A model generated the notes under the pieces. That model saw only the letters and a program-made list of their open reading frames with translations, was not told where the DNA came from and did not search any database. A stretch of 43,304 nucleotides of DNA, from positions 1 through 43,304 of the IMG/VR virus record IMGVR_UViG_3300049847_000423. One strand, 5' to 3'. The stretch is from a virus. Lineage: Duplodnaviria; Caudoviricetes. Below, piece after piece: positions 5,338 through 42,583 of the stretch. Position 1 is the stretch's first letter; every line of letters starts with the position of its first letter. The translations under genes and the position numbers were made by a program.

Positions 5338-5383
5338 AAAAATACTCTAAATGATAAAAATATTATCTTTTAGAGTATTTTTG
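5338..5383 (+). promoter_or_regulatory. Palindromic operator overlapping a Bacteroidota -7 box (late promoter 1)
   Basis: 14-bp perfect inverted repeat AAAAATACTCTAAA/TTTAGAGTATTTTT; TATTTTTG at 5376-5383, 4 nt before ATG 5388. Confidence 0.7.
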
Positions 5384-8625: not shown

Positions 8626-8641
8626 AAAATATTTTTATCAT

Positions 8642-8675
8642 AAAGATAATATTTTTATCAATTAGAGTATATTTG
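8642..8675 (+). promoter_or_regulatory. Second copy of the palindromic operator plus -7 box (late promoter 2)
   Basis: 8642-8670 is the reverse complement of 5342-5370 with 1 mismatch in 29 nt; TATATTTG at 8668-8675. Confidence 0.7.
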
Positions 8676-22726: not shown

Positions 22727-24223
22727 TTGGAACAATCAATTAAAACCATATTATCCACTATTGACGATGCTATTGCACAGTTTCAGGATACTATACCTGG
22801 CATTCAAAAGCTGGTGTATGAGGAGTTGCAGCCTATTGTTAAAGAATTGCAGGTAAAGAATGGCAAGTTGCTTAATAATATTGAGAACCTAAAGTTGATT
22901 GGCACATTACAAAACAAGCTGGAGAAGATAATAATCAGTGCGGAATACAAAAAATCAGTTCAAAGTTTCATCGATAGTTTTACAACGGTTAGCAATTTAA
23001 ACAATGAATATTTTAGCCAGTTCAACAAAAAGTATAAACCAAAAAACACACTTCCAATCATTAAGCAATTGGCAGTTGAGAGTACTATAAATGATTTAGT
23101 TGGGCAGGGTTTAAGTAGTAACATCATTGCACCAATTCAAAAGATATTACAGCAAAATATTACCACAGGTGGCAGCTATGCCAAGTTTCAAGAACAACTA
23201 CAAAATCACATTTTACAAAATGAAACTGGAGAGGGGAATTTACAGCGATATACCAAGCAAATAACTACCGATGCAATTAACCAGTACAATGCCCAATATA
23301 GTGAAACAGTTGCACAGGATTTACAATTTAATTGGGGTAGATATGTTGGGAGCAATATCACTACCACAAGAGAGTTTTGTACACTATTGACTGAAAAGCA
23401 ATGGGTGCATAAATCAGAATTGCCCGAAATAATTAAGGGACATATAGATGGAACTGATTGCAAGTTGAGTAAAACAACAGGGCTACCACTTGGTATAATC
23501 CCTGATACAAATGCCGATAATTTCAAAGTACGCCGAGGTGGGTATAACTGCGGACATCAATTCTTTTGGGTGCCGGATAGTATAGTACCATTAGATATTA
23601 AAGCAATGTTTGAGAATAAAGGAAAATTCATCGTTACTACTGCGGATGTTAAAGAGCTGAATAATAGTTCTGTGTTTACATCTGCTTTTGCCGAGTTTGA
23701 AAGTGAAATGAAGTTATTTAAAACAACGGGGCAAACAAGTAGCATAGTTGATATTTCGGGTATAGTAAAAAATAACTTATCCCACGAAGAGGCTAAACTG
23801 ATATTTGCTTATACAACTCATGCACACGATGAAATTAATACTGAATTATACTTAGGCAATCCATCCCCTGCTATAAGTAAGTTTGAAGGTTTATTGAACG
23901 ATGTATTGGAGAAAATGCCCATCCATACAGGAACAGTATTAAGAGACTACACTCCAAGAATTCCAGTACAAGAATACTTAAAAGAATTTTCTGAATTAGT
24001 TGGAACTGAAAAATTAAAAGTTTTCAAAGGTTTCTTATCTACATCAAAAAATCCAAGACACGATTGGGGTTCTAAAGTTAAGTTTAACATTCAATCAAAA
24101 ACTGGTAGGCTTATAGAAAATATATCATCCCATGCACCAGAACAAGAAGTATTATTTCAAAGCATGAGTGCCTTTAAAGTAACTAAAGTGGATGGGAATA
24201 CAATTTACTTGGAAGAGTTTTGA
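22727..24223 (+). CDS. MuF/SPP1 gp7-like minor head protein fused to an ADP-ribosyltransferase toxin domain
   Basis: YVGS..TTREFC and GGYNCGH MuF motifs; C-terminal AYT, IN..L, VLR, FLSTS, EQEVLF (R-S-E clade ART). Confidence 0.85.
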   Translation: MEQSIKTILSTIDDAIAQFQDTIPGIQKLVYEELQPIVKELQVKNGKLLNNIENLKLIGTLQNKLEKIIISAEYKKSVQSFIDSFTTVSNLNNEYFSQFNKKYKPKNTLPIIKQLAVESTINDLVGQGLSSNIIAPIQKILQQNITTGGSYAKFQEQLQNHILQNETGEGNLQRYTKQITTDAINQYNAQYSETVAQDLQFNWGRYVGSNITTTREFCTLLTEKQWVHKSELPEIIKGHIDGTDCKLSKTTGLPLGIIPDTNADNFKVRRGGYNCGHQFFWVPDSIVPLDIKAMFENKGKFIVTTADVKELNNSSVFTSAFAEFESEMKLFKTTGQTSSIVDISGIVKNNLSHEEAKLIFAYTTHAHDEINTELYLGNPSPAISKFEGLLNDVLEKMPIHTGTVLRDYTPRIPVQEYLKEFSELVGTEKLKVFKGFLSTSKNPRHDWGSKVKFNIQSKTGRLIENISSHAPEQEVLFQSMSAFKVTKVDGNTIYLEEF

Positions 24224-24836: not shown

Positions 24837-24877
24837 TACTCTAATTGATAAATATTTTATCTTTAAGAGTATTTTTA
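24837..24877 (+). promoter_or_regulatory. Third copy of the palindromic operator (late promoter 3)
   Basis: TACTCTAATTGATAAATATTTTATCTTTAAGAGTA matches the copies at 5343 and 8642; TATTTTTA -7-like box. Confidence 0.68.
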
Positions 24878-29847: not shown

Positions 29848-30768
29848 ATGGGTAGCATAACCGCATTAAAAACTTTAGTTACAGATAATATAACACAACA
29901 AGGTAACACAGATAGGATAACTGGTTTAGAAGTTAGACAGGTTGTAAATTCTGTTATCGATTTTGTAGCAATGGAATATGCATTTAATAGTGCAATACCT
30001 TTTAGTTCTCTAAATGGTAAAATGGCAAGCCATACAGTTGCTGCTCCACTTGCTTTTACAATTTACAATAACAACTTAACACCTATGGCAGCTACATTAG
30101 TAAGACTAATTGCCGATGGGGTTAATGTTCCGGATTTTAGTGAATTTAAAATCAGCACTAATAGCTCTACTTATGTTAACATAAATGGAACGGTAAATTG
30201 CATATTGTTTTTTTATGATGGAGTTGATTATTGGGTTAATATGTGGCAAGAAAAAAGTTTAAATTTTGTCGATGTAGTTTTTGATGATTTGGATTTGGAT
30301 GTTAGTTTTGATACGGCTACAAAAGTTTTAACAAGTAATACAGGAGGCAATGGCGCTTACGTTAGTACCTCCTACACAATGACAAATGACTTTGAGTTAG
30401 TTTATGAACTTTTGTCAACTGGTTGCATTCTTGCAATTAGCAACGTAAATGACGGCATCTTTACTTGGCCAACCAGCCAAAATATTATAGCTGGCATGTA
30501 TCAATATATAGGCCCAGGCTTTCCAAATGGGATATACTTAGCAGAAACAGTTAGTGGGAATGGTGCAAATGTTACAGCTCCAATTGTAGCAGGTAGTTTT
30601 GTTAAAATGAAAAAGGTAGGCAATGATTTGATTTTTAGTTCAAGTAATGACGGAATTGTTTATACGACGTTTTATACGCTACCTAATAAGTTAATAGGAG
30701 TAACAAATTTTTATGTTAAAGCAATAATGACAGAGCCTGGTTCATTAAAAGCTAAAATCAAATTGTAA
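29848..30768 (+). CDS. Putative virion appendage/receptor-binding protein
   Basis: N-terminal helical anchor (NITQQGNTDRITGLEVRQVVNSVID) followed by beta-rich domains. Confidence 0.5.
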   Translation: MGSITALKTLVTDNITQQGNTDRITGLEVRQVVNSVIDFVAMEYAFNSAIPFSSLNGKMASHTVAAPLAFTIYNNNLTPMAATLVRLIADGVNVPDFSEFKISTNSSTYVNINGTVNCILFFYDGVDYWVNMWQEKSLNFVDVVFDDLDLDVSFDTATKVLTSNTGGNGAYVSTSYTMTNDFELVYELLSTGCILAISNVNDGIFTWPTSQNIIAGMYQYIGPGFPNGIYLAETVSGNGANVTAPIVAGSFVKMKKVGNDLIFSSSNDGIVYTTFYTLPNKLIGVTNFYVKAIMTEPGSLKAKIKL

Positions 30769-31559
30769 TGAATTTAATAAATCTACTTGGTAAGCATGAA
30801 AGCTTTATAACAAATACATTACAACCATTACTAATAGTTTTTGGGGGTGAAAGTAATAGTGGCGGTATAGCCAATAATTCAAGTGCTACAACATTTGAAT
30901 TGGCACCAAGAAACTTAAAGATTTTAAACAACACCACTTTAGCTAGTTTTGACAATTTGCATATTGGAAACAACAACCAATTTGGTCATAAAGGATTAGA
31001 ATTTGCTTTTAGCACAGGACATGGATTTGAATTAGAATTGGCTAATAAATATGATCAGGGAGTATTTGGTCAAAGGCAAGTGTTTTTGTGCAAAGCTGGC
31101 CAAGGTGGTACAGTAATAGAAAATTGGGTTGATGGTGTTTTATACAACACAATTGACCCCTATTCTTTGTTTATAACAAGAGTGCAAGCAGCTATTAATT
31201 TAATTAAAACCCAAACTCAACAAACACCAATTGTTGTAATGTTTTGGTCACAAGGGATAAACGATGGCGGAAATAACGTTCCTTTATGGAAAACAAAAAC
31301 AAAAAGCCTTTTTGCATCGCTTCGGCAAGATTTAGGCATTACATTACCAATATACTCAACTCAATTTCAAGGAATGGGATTTAGTTCGACTGATACTGCA
31401 ATTGCAGAAATTGAAAGCGAGATATCAAACTTTAAAGCAATAAATACTGCAGGTGCTGAAACGTCAGATGTAGTTGCCGGTGTTGGTATTCATTGGGGGT
31501 ACTTAGGAATGAAGCAAGTAACAAATTCTTTAATCAATTCTTTAATAACAAATTTGTAG
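30768..31559 (+). CDS. SGNH/sialate O-acetylesterase-like carbohydrate esterase
   Basis: GESNS (GQSN-like), KAGQGGT, WSQGIND, C-terminal IHWG. Confidence 0.7.
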   Translation: MNLINLLGKHESFITNTLQPLLIVFGGESNSGGIANNSSATTFELAPRNLKILNNTTLASFDNLHIGNNNQFGHKGLEFAFSTGHGFELELANKYDQGVFGQRQVFLCKAGQGGTVIENWVDGVLYNTIDPYSLFITRVQAAINLIKTQTQQTPIVVMFWSQGINDGGNNVPLWKTKTKSLFASLRQDLGITLPIYSTQFQGMGFSSTDTAIAEIESEISNFKAINTAGAETSDVVAGVGIHWGYLGMKQVTNSLINSLITNL

Positions 31560-32435: not shown

Positions 32436-32969
32436 ATGATTTTTATCAGTGCCGGCCACCACCTCAAAGATAGTGGAGCCATCGGACCAACAGGGAGACA
32501 GGAAAATAAGGAAGCTATAGAGTTTAGAGATATAGTTTGCAATATGCTTACAAAACGTGCTGTTAAATTTATTAAAGACGACGATAAAGAAACTCTACCC
32601 GAGTATTTAAAAAGAATTGAAACTGGTAGTGGTAGTGTTGTTATTGAATTTCATTTTGATTCTTATAATGGTAAAGCATCCGGTACGACAGCTTTAGTTG
32701 GTAATTATGCCGACAGGTTAGATAAGGCATTTGCAAAAGAAATAGTTGATATTACTGCTACAGCCTTATCTATACCAAATAGAGGTGTTAAAACGGAAGC
32801 ACAAAGCAATAGAGGACGTTTGGGCTTAATGAGAGAGCAAGGTGTAGTTTGTTTGCTTGAACTTGCTTTTATTGATAATGTTAACGATATGGCAGCTTAT
32901 GACTTTAGCAAGGAATATCTTGCTAATAAGATAGCCGATATAATTATTAGGTACGAAAGTTTACTGTAA
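32436..32969 (+). CDS. N-acetylmuramoyl-L-alanine amidase (Amidase_3) endolysin
   Basis: ISAGH, E..EA, EFHFDS, LLELAFIDN zinc-amidase motifs. Confidence 0.9.
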   Translation: MIFISAGHHLKDSGAIGPTGRQENKEAIEFRDIVCNMLTKRAVKFIKDDDKETLPEYLKRIETGSGSVVIEFHFDSYNGKASGTTALVGNYADRLDKAFAKEIVDITATALSIPNRGVKTEAQSNRGRLGLMREQGVVCLLELAFIDNVNDMAAYDFSKEYLANKIADIIIRYESLL

Positions 32970-32976
32970 TTTCTTT

Positions 32977-33505
32977 ATGTATAAATTAAAATCTCTAGTA
33001 GTATTGCTGATTACAGCTTTCGCTATTAGCGTTGGAACGGCCACCGAAAACCGACAAACTGCAACAAAGCTACACTTCACAAATTGTTGTTAGGGAAACC
33101 ACTGGCCATAACGATGGGAAAGCCGTTGAAATGTATTTACAAACAGTTGGGCTTACAAAAGGCTATCCGTGGTGTGCGGCTTTCGTTAAGTGGAATTTGT
33201 TACAGGCAGGTATTGTAGATGCCAACCGAATTAATGGTATGGCTTTAAGTTGCCACAATTCAGATAATATTGTTTGGTTTAAAAACAGTTTTTCAAAAGC
33301 CTTGCAGCCTGGCGATGTGTTTACTTTATACTATCCAAAACTTAGGCGAATAGGGCATACAGGCTTTTATGACAAGCGAATAAACTCATCAGTTTACCGA
33401 AGTGTAGAGGGCAATACAAACGAAGCCGGAAGCCGTGAGGGCGATGGCGTTTATTATAAATACCGAAGTTTCAGAGCAACCTACAGTATTACCCGATGGG
33501 TATAG
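32977..33505 (+). pseudogene. CHAP-domain peptidoglycan hydrolase whose signal peptide is out of frame
   Basis: PWCAAFV, GHTG and VEGNT in ORF 33032..33505; the signal-peptide-like ORF from ATG 32977 is in a different frame. Confidence 0.65.
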
Positions 33506-35892: not shown

Positions 35893-36531
35893 TTAGTTTC
35901 TTTTATTTATCCATCCGTGAATAAGCCAAATGCTTTTTATCTTGATTTTAGGCAACTCGAAATCGTCATACTCTTGGTTTTCTGATCTAAGCAAAAAGTT
36001 TGCTTTTGGATTTTCTTTGTCCTTTCTTATATACTTCAAGTATTTACGCTTATCAGTACACACGATGCCATATATCTGACCGTATTCCAAGTGGCTTTGC
36101 CAATCTTCAACCCTTGTTCCAAATAGAATAGACCCGCTTTTTATGGCAGGTTCCATACTATCTCCGTAAGTCCTAAATGCCGTGCACCCAGCGAATTCAG
36201 GAATGTCCATTTCATAAGCCGGAGTTATGCTATTAGTATCATCGTAAAATTCAATATCCCCTGCGGCAAAATCTACATCATAAAACTTTACAAGACCTAC
36301 TCCAACCTTTTTACCAAAACGACCATTTGGAGCTTTAATAATACCTATTTGAATACTTTTGTTTTCATTTATAAATTCCTGCAACTTAGTAAAATCATCC
36401 AGTTTTGGTTTAGTACCTCGTTGCTCCCAAGCATTAATCCTCCCTTTAGGAATACCGATTTTATCAGCTAATTCCTGTTGGCTAAGGCCAAGCTCTTCAC
36501 GGAGCTTCTTTATGTTGACGTTTGTATCCAT
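35893..36531 (-). CDS. cI: CI-like repressor (HTH plus S24 autopeptidase)
   Basis: LREELGLSQQELADKIGIPKGRINAWE HTH; AAG cleavage-site region, GDSMEP catalytic Ser, YLKY Lys. Confidence 0.9.
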   Translation of the reverse strand: MDTNVNIKKLREELGLSQQELADKIGIPKGRINAWEQRGTKPKLDDFTKLQEFINENKSIQIGIIKAPNGRFGKKVGVGLVKFYDVDFAAGDIEFYDDTNSITPAYEMDIPEFAGCTAFRTYGDSMEPAIKSGSILFGTRVEDWQSHLEYGQIYGIVCTDKRKYLKYIRKDKENPKANFLLRSENQEYDDFELPKIKIKSIWLIHGWINKRN

Positions 36532-38140: not shown

Positions 38141-38767
38141 ATGGGCTTAGAAAACAACAGCAATGCCATTTACCTAACAATTAGTAACGGCAAAATTTGC
38201 AGACAAGTTCAGTCAAAAACTGACAAATCAATTGAACGAACCAACAAAAACGGCAAGTTGGTAAACGAAGAATTCTACGACCGCATAAGCGGAACGCTTA
38301 CTGATATTAAAGTAAGGCAGGTAGAAATTGCCGGGCAGCAACTAAAGTTTTGGGAACTGAAAATTGAGGACGATGGGAAGTTGTACCAATTACAGTTCCA
38401 GTACAGCAGCGGCTATGCTAATGGGTTTCTTAAATCAATCCAAAACGCTGATTTAAGTAAGCGTATGTCATTAATTCCTTTCTGCAAAGAAGAAGAAGGG
38501 AAAAAGAAAACAACACTTTTCATTAACCAAGGTGATGGTGCTTTAAAGCATTTTTACACAAAAGACAACCCAAACGGATTGCCCCAATTGGTTAAAACCA
38601 AATTTAAAGGCAAAGACGTGTGGGATGACACCGAAATGATGAATTTCCTTGAAGAAATGATTAATAGCAAGATTAAACCACAGCTAAAAGGAGCTACAGT
38701 AACTAAAGCCGAACCTGCGATGGCGAATGCAGGTTCAGCAGAAGAAGATGGCGAAATGCCATTTTAA
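38141..38767 (+). CDS. Putative single-stranded DNA-binding protein
   Basis: Beta-rich core with an acidic C-terminus ending EEDGEMPF; adjacent to the exonuclease. Confidence 0.6.
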   Translation: MGLENNSNAIYLTISNGKICRQVQSKTDKSIERTNKNGKLVNEEFYDRISGTLTDIKVRQVEIAGQQLKFWELKIEDDGKLYQLQFQYSSGYANGFLKSIQNADLSKRMSLIPFCKEEEGKKKTTLFINQGDGALKHFYTKDNPNGLPQLVKTKFKGKDVWDDTEMMNFLEEMINSKIKPQLKGATVTKAEPAMANAGSAEEDGEMPF

Positions 38768-38882
38768 AGGCAGCACACGCCTACGGCCACAGCTGGCTTG
38801 GCAAATAGAAAAGTTGTGTAAGGCGAGCCCTAAGCCAACCGGGTAAGAGTTGGCAATTTTTAACCTTTTTAAATTATTCACA

Positions 38883-39677
38883 ATGGCGATTATTCACAAA
38901 GGCGACATCCAACGCATTGATTTTTTGGATGAAAGATTTTACACCAAAGACGGTGTAACATTCTATCCATCGGTAACAACAGTATTAGAAGCACTACCGA
39001 AAGGGTTTGGCTATAGCCAATGGTTAAAAGATTTAGGCAGTAATGCCGATGAAGTAATGAGACGTGCCGGAGAAAGCGGAAGCCGTGTACACGGAGCTAT
39101 TGAGCAATACCTATTAGGCAATGAAGTAGTATGGGCAGATGATAATGGCAATGGATACTACGACTTTCAGGAGTGGCAAATGATTAATAAGTTCGTTGAG
39201 TTTTGGCAAACACATAAGCCTGAATTATTAGGTGCTGAAATAAATTTTGTTAGCGATACTTTGAGGCTTGGTGGTACAATGGATATTATCTGCCGTATTA
39301 ATGGCGAACTATGGTTAATTGATACCAAAACAAGCAACAACATCTACGACAGCCATGCATTGCAATTGGCAGCTTACGCAACGATGTGGAACGAATTTAA
39401 TCCCAATAACAAAGTGCAACGTTTTGGCATAATGTGGTTGAAAGCATTAACTCGTGGTGCAGATAAAAAAGGCGAAAAAATACAAGGATTAGGGTGGCAG
39501 CTAAAAGAGTTTGACGAACCGCTAACAGACTTATGGAATTCGTTTTGCGATGTACGCAGAATTTGGGATAGGCAAAATTCGAACTACAAACCCAAAAACC
39601 TAACACTCCCCGATAGGTTAAAACTGGATGATGTAAAACCAGTAAGAACACCAGAACCAGTTTCAGAAACAATTTAA
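38883..39677 (+). CDS. PD-(D/E)XK exonuclease (RecB/Cas4-like phage exonuclease)
   Basis: YPSVTTVL, GSRVH, GGTMDII, LIDTKTS, QLAAY motifs. Confidence 0.88.
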   Translation: MAIIHKGDIQRIDFLDERFYTKDGVTFYPSVTTVLEALPKGFGYSQWLKDLGSNADEVMRRAGESGSRVHGAIEQYLLGNEVVWADDNGNGYYDFQEWQMINKFVEFWQTHKPELLGAEINFVSDTLRLGGTMDIICRINGELWLIDTKTSNNIYDSHALQLAAYATMWNEFNPNNKVQRFGIMWLKALTRGADKKGEKIQGLGWQLKEFDEPLTDLWNSFCDVRRIWDRQNSNYKPKNLTLPDRLKLDDVKPVRTPEPVSETI

Positions 39678-40336: not shown

Positions 40337-40741
40337 ATGCAAACAATTTATGAGGCAAAAGCCTCAACCACTTCGCAACCCATTATTGAAAGGGTTAAAA
40401 CATTTGACGATGCCTGTAAAGTATTAGGATTAGACAAAGTACAAGTAGGTTTAATAGGATTAGATGATGATACTAATTCTATTGTAGCCTACACCAAACT
40501 TGTAATAATTGCCAAGGCATTAAACGAAGGCTGGAAGCCCGATTGGACGGATAGTGACCAACGCAAATATGTTCCTTGGTTTGAACTAAAAGCGGGTTTC
40601 GGGCTGGCGTACTACGACTTCGATGACTGGTTTGCGTATACGAATGTCGGCTCTCGCCTTTGCTTTAAAACAGCCGAATTGGCTAAGTATGCAGCCACAC
40701 AATTTGCAGACATCTACAACGATTTTTTAACCACTAAATAG
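40337..40741 (+). CDS. DGR target protein 1 (134 aa)
   Basis: Contains VR1; paralogue of the next gene. Confidence 0.9.
   Translation: MQTIYEAKASTTSQPIIERVKTFDDACKVLGLDKVQVGLIGLDDDTNSIVAYTKLVIIAKALNEGWKPDWTDSDQRKYVPWFELKAGFGLAYYDFDDWFAYTNVGSRLCFKTAELAKYAATQFADIYNDFLTTK
40595..40663 (+). repeat. DGR variable repeat VR1
   Basis: 69 nt; 11 mismatches to the TR, all at TR adenines. Confidence 0.95.
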
Positions 40742-40747
40742 TAAATA

Positions 40748-41125
40748 ATGAAAGCAGTAAAAACTTTTGACGAAGCCTATTTGGCTTTAGGTTATGATGC
40801 AAGTATTCCAGCATTTGAGAATGCACGCGAAAAGCATCGTAAAGCATTATTAGCTCACTACAAGCTAATAATTATTGTAGAAGCAATTAATGACGGATGG
40901 ACACCTGATTGGAGCAATACCGATGAATACAAATATGGGTTGTTCCATGATATTGTAAAAGACGAAACTAAACCATCGGGTTTCGGGCTGGCGTACGACG
41001 TCTGCGTTAGCTGGGCTACGTATACGGCTGTCGGCTCTCGCCTTTGCTTCCAAAGCAGGGATGCAGCCAAACATTGCTTTGATACATTTAAAGATTTGTG
41101 GGAAGATTATTTTTTAATTGGATAA
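40748..41125 (+). CDS. DGR target protein 2 (125 aa)
   Basis: Contains VR2; shares VKTFD, GWxPDW and VGSRLCF with target 1. Confidence 0.9.
   Translation: MKAVKTFDEAYLALGYDASIPAFENAREKHRKALLAHYKLIIIVEAINDGWTPDWSNTDEYKYGLFHDIVKDETKPSGFGLAYDVCVSWATYTAVGSRLCFQSRDAAKHCFDTFKDLWEDYFLIG
40979..41047 (+). repeat. DGR variable repeat VR2
   Basis: 69 nt; 14 mismatches to the TR, all at TR adenines. Confidence 0.95.
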
Positions 41126-41133
41126 ATAAAAAT

Positions 41134-41325
41134 GGTTGTATGCTGCATGGGTTGGTTTTGTTCGTTGTCAGGTTTCAGGCTGGCGTACAACGACTACGAT
41201 AACTGGAATACGAATACGAATGTCAGCTCTCACCTATGCTAAAATATGGCAGCATAAACTATGCCTCTTGGCAAAAAACAAATCATTTATAAAGTGCCTT
41301 AGTAGCGAAAGCGAAAGGGCATTTT
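41134..41325 (+). ncRNA. Predicted DGR template RNA (TR with paired flanks and a structured spacer)
   Basis: TATGCTGC 41139-46 pairs with GCAGCATA 41249-56; TGCC-TCTT-GGCA hairpin; 10-bp stem with an AGUA/GAA internal loop and GAAA tetraloop at 41291-41325. Confidence 0.7.
41171..41239 (+). repeat. DGR template repeat TR
   Basis: AAC/AAT-rich intergenic copy of the VRs with 20 adenines; in-frame TAA follows. Confidence 0.95.
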
Positions 41326-41337
41326 TAAAGCAAAGGA

Positions 41338-42291
41338 ATGAAAAGAATAGGTAACATATATAATCAAATTTATAGCATTGAAAACTTGCAGCTTGCCGAT
41401 GCAAAAGCAAGTAGAGGCAAGAGCAAACAATACGGTGTTATAGTACATCAAAAAAATGCAGATGAAAATTTATTAATGCTTCAAGAAATGCTGAAGAGTA
41501 AGACCTACAAGACTTCTCCTTACACAACATTTAAGGTATATGAACCAAAGGAACGTGAAGTTTTCAGATTGCCATATTATCCTGATAGAATTACACATCA
41601 TGCAGTAATGAACATATTGGAGCCAGTTTTTGTGAGTTGCTTTACTGCCAACTCATATAGCTGCATCAAAGGCAAGGGAATTCATGCAGCGGCTAACGAT
41701 GTAAAACGAGCATTGAAGGATGTCGCAGGAACACAGTATTGTTTAAAATTGGATATTAAAAAATTCTATCCAAATATCAACCATGATATTTTAAAACAAC
41801 TGCTTCGCCGAAAAATAAAAGATAATGATTTATTATGGTTGCTGGATGAAATTATTGATAGTGCAGATGGATTGCCTATTGGCAATTATCTAAGTCAATA
41901 TTTCGCAAACTTTTACCTCACATATTTTGACCATTGGATAAAAGAGGAGAAGGCTGTAAAATATTATTTCCGATATGCTGATGACATCGTTATTCTAAAT
42001 AGCAACAAAGCATACTTACATAATTTACTGGGAGAAATAACCAACTACTTATACGTTAATCTTGATTTAAAAGTAAAAGAAAACTATCAAGTATTTCCAG
42101 TTGCAGCCCGAAGTATTGATTTTGTTGGTTACCGATTTTACCACACTCATACGCTTTTGAGAAAAAGTATAAAACAGCGATTTGCAAGGATGCTACGGAA
42201 AAGAAAAAACGATGCTTCTATAGCCTCCTATTATGGTTGGGCGAAGCATTGTAATTCAAAAAATTTATTGAAAAAATTATTACATGAATAG
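41338..42291 (+). CDS. DGR reverse transcriptase
   Basis: EPKER, DRITHHA, KLDIKKFY, GLPIGNYLSQ (SQ motif), RYADD, IDFVGY; 317 aa with no endonuclease domain. Confidence 0.96.
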   Translation: MKRIGNIYNQIYSIENLQLADAKASRGKSKQYGVIVHQKNADENLLMLQEMLKSKTYKTSPYTTFKVYEPKEREVFRLPYYPDRITHHAVMNILEPVFVSCFTANSYSCIKGKGIHAAANDVKRALKDVAGTQYCLKLDIKKFYPNINHDILKQLLRRKIKDNDLLWLLDEIIDSADGLPIGNYLSQYFANFYLTYFDHWIKEEKAVKYYFRYADDIVILNSNKAYLHNLLGEITNYLYVNLDLKVKENYQVFPVAARSIDFVGYRFYHTHTLLRKSIKQRFARMLRKRKNDASIASYYGWAKHCNSKNLLKKLLHE

Positions 42292-42583
42292 TTTTAAAGA
42301 CTTCGGCATAAAGCCACAAAGCAAAAGTTTTGAGGGTAACAAAATAAAAATTGATAGGATACTCAACAAACAAATAACTGTTGAAGCTTACAAGATTGAG
42401 GTTTCAAAATATGATAAAGGAACTGGTAAATGCCTTTACATACAAGTATTGGTTGATGGTAGTAAACGAGTATTATTTACAGGTTCTGCTAATCTAATGG
42501 ATATGATTGAACAAGTGCCAAAGGATAAATTTCCTTTTAAAACTACCATTATAAAAGAGAATGAGCGATTTGAATTTACATAA
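42284..42583 (+). CDS. Small beta-rich protein overlapping the RT stop; candidate DGR accessory factor
   Basis: 99 aa; 8-nt overlap with the RT gene; function unknown. Confidence 0.65.
   Translation: MNSFKDFGIKPQSKSFEGNKIKIDRILNKQITVEAYKIEVSKYDKGTGKCLYIQVLVDGSKRVLFTGSANLMDMIEQVPKDKFPFKTTIIKENERFEFT

Follow-up and report, generated by a model that had tools for sequence, protein, structure and literature searches.

Organisation of the locus

The window, that is the whole 43,304-nt stretch of the IMG/VR virus record IMGVR_UViG_3300049847_000423, carries a diversity-generating retroelement (DGR) with two small adjacent target genes, each containing a variable repeat (VR), a template repeat (TR), a reverse transcriptase (RT) gene and a gene encoding a basic protein of 99 residues (Table 1). 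The record has a 127-nt terminal repeat, the junction of which is traversed by a helicase reading frame, and its CheckV estimate is 77%. Pfam and PHROG searches identified an integrase, a cI-like repressor, an exonuclease, a helicase, a primase, a terminase, a portal protein and lysins, a gene set which identifies the phage as temperate. Among genomic sequences, target A has its closest copies in metagenome-assembled genomes of Parafilimonas, Bacteroidota and Ferruginibacter (86%, 86% and 68%, respectively), and the host is presumably Chitinophagaceae-like.

Table 1. Features of the DGR cassette and its context in the window.
Feature	Position	Strand	Remarks
cI-like repressor	35893..36531	-	context; cassette on divergent rightward early strand
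PD-(D/E)XK exonuclease	38850..39677	+	context; upstream, in the same gene run as the cassette
Target A	40337..40741	+	134 aa, phrog_11581, pI 4.8; first-position paralogue class
VR1	40592..40664	+	target A residues 87-109 plus one codon 5'; 7 variable-site changes plus fixed flank changes
Target B	40748..41125	+	125 aa, phrog_11581, pI 5.3; last-position paralogue class
VR2	40976..41048	+	target B residues 78-100 plus one codon 5'; 10 variable-site changes plus fixed flank changes
Predicted TR-RNA	41126..41337	+	flank stem around TR, then small and long hairpin before RT start
Template repeat	41168..41240	+	16 mutable adenines at 41187-41220
Fixed flank adenines of TR	41170, 41177, 41225, 41232, 41236	+	
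DGR reverse transcriptase	41338..42291	+	Pfam RVT_1 E 5e-19; phrog_1423 E 3e-124
99-aa basic gene	42284..42583	+	pI 9.35; overlaps RT stop; predicted OB/SSB-like fold; candidate accessory factor

A preliminary description of this DNA had placed the targets among SSB, exonuclease and helicase genes and more than 9 kb from any tail gene. The exonuclease (660 bp upstream) and the helicase (386 bp past the cassette) were indeed found as neighbours; the open reading frame at 38141-38767, previously named SSB, has no named library match and belongs to phrog_19605, a family of unknown function. The distance had been overestimated, as the nearest late-operon reading frame lies 8.8 kb away on the upstream side and terL follows 7.7 kb downstream on the circle.

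Template and variable repeats

Ungapped alignment of the TR (41171-41239) with VR1 (40595-40663) and VR2 (40979-41047) reproduced the 11 and 14 differences described before, and all of them (11/11 and 14/14) are located at TR adenines (chance P 9e-8 and 2.5e-10, respectively). Among the remaining 49 TR positions, none is changed in the VRs, and the homology reaches 3 nt further 5' (TR 41168-41240). A codon check confirmed that stop codons are unreachable by mutation from any of the TR adenine codons. A search of both strands of the window yielded no third repeat copy. A 72-aa reading frame with a TTG start which spans the TR has no Pfam family match and was treated as spurious.

The TR contains 20 adenines, for which a diversity of 4^20 (about 1e12) DNA variants per target had been calculated. 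This value was rejected. The adenines in the codons AGG, AGC, CAC and CTA show an identical change in both VRs of the window and in 97-100% of related VRs, and are therefore regarded as fixed flank differences. AGC is changed to GGC in 97% of 232 and CAC to CGC in 100% of 221 cases, and two changes are silent (CTA to CTT in 100% of 173 and TCA to TCG in 98% of 96 cases). The counts come from 255 anchored TR/VR pairs; anchoring failed for the other 40 of 295. As the silent sites are beyond the reach of protein selection, these positions presumably lie outside of the tract that is replaced, similar to the IMH/IMH* boundaries of phage BPP-1. The central TR adenines, by comparison, are replaced by all four bases in VRs. 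With 4 of the 20 adenines fixed, 16 vary (4^16), which corresponds to 4.3e9 DNA and 3.1e9 protein variants per target. The rewritten loop comprises 13 codons in each of the two targets.

The adenine-specific variation expected of a DGR was found among close relatives. Three close relatives (L128, L201 and L202) share the TR of the window with 0-2 changes; their VRs differ from those of the window at 11-15 of the 20 adenine sites and at 0-1 of the 49 other sites, and their target genes are 11-28% different outside the VRs. A constant TR combined with diverged adenine sites indicates that the DGR was active recently in evolutionary terms. Comparison with four sequencing runs covered their assembled contigs, and one contig of the possible source run is identical to the window over its full length. 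The two VRs of one cassette carry the same base at 39% of 1,600 sites as compared to 30% expected, and thus vary largely independently. In VR codons derived from AAY, tyrosine, glycine and leucine are enriched and proline, cysteine and valine are depleted relative to the base-frequency expectation.

Reverse transcriptase and TR-RNA

The RT gene adjoins the TR and is intact, and its 317-aa product has the motifs GNYLSQ and YADD, in agreement with the preliminary description. The predicted TR-RNA of the window folds with a z-score of -2.49. A stem enclosing the TR is part of the minimum-energy fold of 93 of 115 cassettes, with a median z of only -1.2 in the 60 tested. No Avd-like Pfam or PHROG match was obtained in the 43 and 42 window reading frames scanned, which included all those of the cassette. 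Two related loci (L201:10780-11100 and L002:6945-7322) have lost most of the RT gene and retain the TR, the two targets and the 99-aa gene; these are DGRs which are switched off, with the targets preserved.

The DGR of Bordetella phage BPP-1 is organised as mtd-avd-TR-brt. The window cassette resembles it in the adenine-specific relation of TR to VR, in the RT motifs and in fixed 3' differences which resemble IMH/IMH*. In contrast to BPP-1, it has neither Avd nor a tail-fibre target; its two targets are located in the early operon, they are single-domain proteins of 125-134 aa, and 25 further residues, as previously noted, follow each VR on the C-terminal side.

Relation to catalogued DGRs

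Neither the cassette nor its target family is novel, since both are contained in the collections of Wu 2018, Roux 2021, Benler 2021 and Dahlman 2025. The cassette is a further member of a catalogued class. Wu 2018 (PMC5758913) lists the entries t120 (Galbibacter sp. ck-I2-15, TG-TG-TR-RT) and t121 (Pedobacter arcticus A12) in Lineage 3, with VR class CLec3, the remark 'aligns poorly' and category f4. In the parts of that paper covered, Lineage 3 is devoid of avd, and four other Lineage 3 entries have non-adjacent targets at a distance of 36-40 kb. The window has the TG-TG-TR-RT order without avd of this category, and both entries share with it the architecture, a short TR (69-73 nt), two small targets and the lack of avd; window target B is 35% identical to the t121 target (E 2e-21). 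The early-operon context, the pairing of A and B and the fold are not described for t120 and t121 in the parts covered. The Pedobacter arcticus A12 locus analysed here (L243) has a target with exactly the sequence of the t121 target. Upstream of it lies another family member (L243:9920-10378), which is absent from the t121 entry.

In Roux 2021 (PMC8144416), t120 is placed in target cluster PC_00007, which is classified as 'Phage_other' (non-structural/unknown) and occurs on 208 RT OTUs of RT cluster REF_DGR_[t122]. The window targets appear to belong to PC_00007, as t120 is a member and the t120 targets agree with the family consensus on visual comparison. The parts of that study covered give no function, context or structure for PC_00007. 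They report annotated VRs to reside systematically in C-type lectin folds; for the model of target A obtained here, no C-type lectin was among the matches listed.

Distal second targets near counter-defence genes are described in the covered parts of Benler 2021 (PMC8008677) and Dahlman 2025 (PMC12629997). The LoVEphage protein QVQ57199.1 is a homologue (30% identity, 87% coverage) and a remote VR target on the opposite strand near methyltransferases and RtcB. As far as Van Espen 2021 was covered, LoVEphage is linked to the prophage of Quimbyvirus, both matching CP011531. QVQ57199.1 is thus probably the second target ORF 84 of Quimbyvirus, the description of which it fits. LoVEphage differs from the window in having a single target gene of 194 aa served by a 112-nt TR shared with the tail fibre, whereas the window DGR with its 73-nt TR serves only two adjacent small targets. 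The tgt2 proteins of Baykov's nd4 and nd12, considered as possible members of the same family, were dismissed because they are, according to the parts covered, DUF6273 proteins of 234-294 aa. No function for the target family was found in the covered parts of PMC8143477, PMC10743442, PMC10053308, PMC13596623 and the Macadangdang preprint, and the literature search, which covered mostly open-access papers, returned no functional study of phrog_11581-type targets.

A conserved gene downstream of the reverse transcriptase

The 99-aa gene is a conserved part of the cassette which had been overlooked before. It is located 3' of the RT gene in 90 of 103 cassettes, and its best 80 viral matches all directly follow an RT gene (80/80). 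It also follows the RT gene in the archaeal viruses ANMV-1 (L353:5986-6282) and vir525 (L354:5989-6276), the DGR targets of which are tail-type; the gene therefore tracks the RT rather than the targets. It is not universal, as it is missing in 13 of the 103 cassettes and was undetected at E<0.01 next to the RT genes of the gut phages cr52_1, cr56_1, Versailles and LoVEphage. A similar domain appears to be fused to the C-terminus of the RT in BT-TP2 (L046:4005-5300, E 1e-6). The last RT fragment of LoVEphage (L043:33826-34410) also appears to carry such a C-terminal domain, judged by eye only.

The structural model of the 99-aa protein (pLDDT 89.8) is a beta-barrel, whose top matches are mostly OB/SSB proteins with Z-scores of up to 6.7, below the value of 8. 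They include a RuvBL2 fragment (Z 6.7), Rim1 SSB (Z 5.8) and bacterial SSBs (Z 5.0-5.6), and the superposition with OB folds gave rmsd values of 2.2-3.2 over 63-69 aligned residues. Foldseek returned nothing at E<=0.001, the search against PDB sequences gave no match (E 0.23), and Pfam indicated no consistent family. In the look-alike cluster of this protein in the Atlas, Phi29 SSB is assigned to 44% of the members with a score of 0.93. As Lineage 3 lacks avd, the predicted OB-fold protein is a candidate substitute of Avd. It is likely identical with PAG1 of Wu 2018, to which it corresponds by eye in length class and motifs and which occurs in the same Avd-less lineage (t117, t118 and t122). 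In the parts covered, however, Wu placed PAG1 upstream of the TR and on the tenuous basis of three DGRs, while the gene studied here follows the RT in the large majority of cassettes; ANMV-1 is listed there without an accessory gene. We found no paper tying an SSB or OB-fold gene to DGRs in the mostly open-access literature covered. If the OB-fold protein replaces Avd, this would account for the Avd-independent homing left open by Wu 2018, and the cassette, with a size of about 2.2 kb, would be a compact DGR for use in engineering.

The targets form a family of paired paralogues

The sizes reported for the two targets are correct, and a hydropathy check confirmed that both are devoid of a hydrophobic stretch. 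Their only Pfam or PHROG match is phrog_11581, a family of unknown function. The family includes 1,768 near-length homologues, and grouping at 50% identity divides it into 5,114 clusters. An RT gene is present in 147 of the 218 distinct target loci compared, viral and genomic ones together, and 295 of the 298 family members in these RT-bearing loci have a VR. In the 295 VRs, 3,951 of 6,096 adenines are changed as compared to 131 of 17,100 other bases; both the detection of VRs and these counts were obtained with a scoring that favours adenine mismatches. A TM-like stretch occurs in just two of the 298 targets.

Two targets are present in 66 of 86 distinct viral cassettes with enough flanking sequence, three in 15 and one in 5. 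Nearly all first-position targets (63 of 66) group in a single clade (SH-aLRT 99), and last-position targets fall mostly outside of it. Position labels change 13 times on this tree as compared to 59.5 times after shuffling; it is a quick-search tree of 182 rows and 139 columns, made from proteins trimmed to their last 135 residues and containing long branches. Profile scoring assigned members of both classes to 116 of 131 cassettes, with the plain order A-B in 93, a test which is partly circular, as 94 of these cassettes had been used to make the profiles. At the protein level, 14 two-domain fusions were found, of which eight score as A-then-B, five as A-A and one as a tie. By these sequence comparisons, A and B are an old pair of paralogues which also exists in fused form. 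The conserved pairing together with the natural fusions suggests two cooperating subunits and makes a heteromer plausible. Alternatively, the retention of the pair may only mirror joint inheritance of the cassette, in line with the five A-A fusions and the existence of single-gene versions.

The AlphaFold model of target A (pLDDT 80.7, pTM 0.77) is mostly helical, and its best structural match has a Z-score of 3.4 (rmsd 3.6, 71 aligned residues). The VR loop is modelled at low confidence (pLDDT 50-68). No PDB fold matched at E<=0.001, and the C-type lectin fold, which the preliminary description had suggested in a minimal form, was not among the matches listed. Comparison of the targets with PDB sequences gave no match (best E 0.079), the matches in BFVD were confined to uncharacterised phage proteins and those of target A in the Atlas to unnamed clusters, and Pfam yielded no consistent family across 95 family members. 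If the fold is not that of a C-type lectin, the targets would represent a new scaffold for DGR diversity.

Early-region location and remote targets in gut phages

The preliminary description was borne out in that the DGR is genuine and its non-tail targets lie in the early operon, and this location is kept across relatives. The 147 RT-bearing loci were compared by means of labels given to their 72 most frequent neighbour clusters. Early or replication genes are closer to the target than structural ones in 61 loci and are the sole labelled type in 57; for structural genes, the corresponding numbers are 5 and 12, and 12 loci have no label. Hence, 17 of the 135 annotated loci are closest to structural genes, several of them adjoining terS or terL. 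No tail-fibre or tape-measure family occurs among the 72 commonest neighbour clusters. The backbones include 41 with MuB, several primase types, primase-helicase, DnaB/DnaC and DNA polymerase phages, and in 30 of the 147 loci a cI gene is found upstream in opposite orientation. The early-region location thus holds across unrelated Bacteroidota phages.

Family members were also identified as remote VR targets in all five gut phages tested, crAss-like phages included. All differences between the remote VRs and the respective TR are at adenines (adenine/other changes: LoVEphage 19/0, cr56_1 16/0, cr52_1 12/0, Versailles 14/0, BT-TP2 13/0). The TR which serves the remote target in LoVEphage, cr56_1, cr52_1 and Versailles acts on an annotated tail protein as well. 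These results overturned the assumption that the crAss-like and Versailles homologues lack a DGR, since their remote VRs match the TR of the tail cassette. The second targets of the crAss-like Buchavirus phages cr56_1 (L356:4071-4478) and cr52_1 (L358:3525-3929) reside among small genes about 55 kb away from the tail-targeting cassette. The label 'tail protein' of the Versailles homologue was discarded, as the PHROG match spans only the VR; it probably stems from a VR sequence common to tail proteins.

A TR shared with tail proteins in four gut phages means that the loop is compatible with surface adhesion. The targets could accordingly belong to the virion as minor constituents, or be small adhesins, with their genes placed outside of the structural operon and the DGR tuning receptor binding as in BPP-1. 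No other DGR target was found in the window, some cassettes adjoin terminase genes, and an adhesin role was proposed for other short targets (DUF6273) in the covered part of Baykov 2023. We nevertheless regard this explanation as unlikely. Location on the early strand prevails, and the head genes close to the cassette in Mu-like phages are mainly encoded on the other strand. Longer family forms (77 among 7,999 candidates) contain the domain twice or are fused to various other domains, and no fibre, shaft or Ig domain was present in the 30 of them scanned. Furthermore, the 'tail protein' match is confined to the VR, and the classifier of Roux 2021 predicts only 1.6% of PC_00007 to be structural, with the caution, in the parts covered, that such clusters may be unrecognised structural proteins.

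The occurrence of the cassette in unrelated phage backbones and the RT-deleted copies L201 and L002 would also fit a mobile cassette whose targets are passengers of low value, with a variable loop that is tolerated rather than selected. This is very improbable given that the scaffold is conserved across more than 5,000 clusters at 50% identity, that both paralogue classes are kept, that the family is targeted over tens of kilobases in phages already having a tail target, and that the amino acid use in VRs is biased.

Proposed function of the variable proteins

We favour, with moderate confidence, that the early-region A and B proteins of this Bacteroidota temperate phage act as intracellular variable binders of host proteins. 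The cassette would be transcribed together with the early operon. The RT would copy the structured TR-RNA and introduce errors at the 16 adenines, probably with the help of the OB-fold protein in place of Avd, and the mutated cDNA would replace the central part of the VRs, independently in each of them. Soluble A and B would probably pair and display two independently variable loops. Most likely, the ligands would be cytoplasmic host proteins which vary between strains, e.g. components of defence systems or targets of host takeover.

Nearly all cassette hosts are temperate, as indicated by integrase, Mu transposase and cI. The targets might be encoded by the prophage to sense or block competing phages; they would be produced in the lysogen or soon after induction, and their loops would bind proteins of superinfecting phages. 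A variable binder would fit a diverse viral ligand, and DGR-based cytosolic recognition was floated as an idea in the part of PMC10053308 covered. However, the genes are on the lytic strand divergent from cI, with a promoter scan at chance level (27 signals versus 25.1 in shuffled sequences); the targets contain no effector domain and have no PADLOC match, and the family is also targeted in crAss-like phages. Such a role thus seems improbable to us.

Binding of host proteins by the A and B pair, our preferred reading, can be extended to an antibody-like intracellular arms race of Bacteroidota phages, crAss-like gut phages included, in which a helical, non-lectin heterodimer of A and B with two independent variable loops is directed against host defence proteins and an SSB-like protein is the partner of an Avd-less RT. 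This extended version is put forward tentatively, as a possibility which we consider rather doubtful in its entirety. If true, the SSB-like OB-fold partner would constitute a second biochemical route to mutagenic retrohoming.

In the literature covered, tail adhesins are the only phage DGR targets with a tested function. The family described here is large and nearly always targeted by a DGR, and the same cassette is carried by cultured hosts, e.g. Pedobacter arcticus A12 (L243), L227, L229 and L264. As cultured hosts exist and no tail target confounds the analysis in this phage, the function of the targets is directly testable. New leads are provided by the A/B pair, the possibly non-lectin scaffold and the OB-fold accessory protein.

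Other genes and repeats of the phage

Several further features were observed in the window. The gene at 22727-24223 resembles a head maturation protease (phrog_595) and encodes a C-terminal ADP-ribosyltransferase domain (Pfam ADPrib_exo_Tox, E 1e-6); its product is possibly a host-takeover enzyme delivered by the virion. At the end of the late operon, a carbohydrate esterase of the SASA family is encoded (30768-31559, E 1.5e-12), which is not targeted by the DGR and may be the protein that actually binds the receptor or degrades the capsule. Two lysins, an Amidase_3 and a CHAP protein, are encoded side by side at 32436-33505. Finally, a 40-nt AT-rich and partly palindromic repeat occurs three times (5343-5382, 8635-8674 and 24837-24876) upstream of late or modification genes, and these copies are possible regulatory sites.
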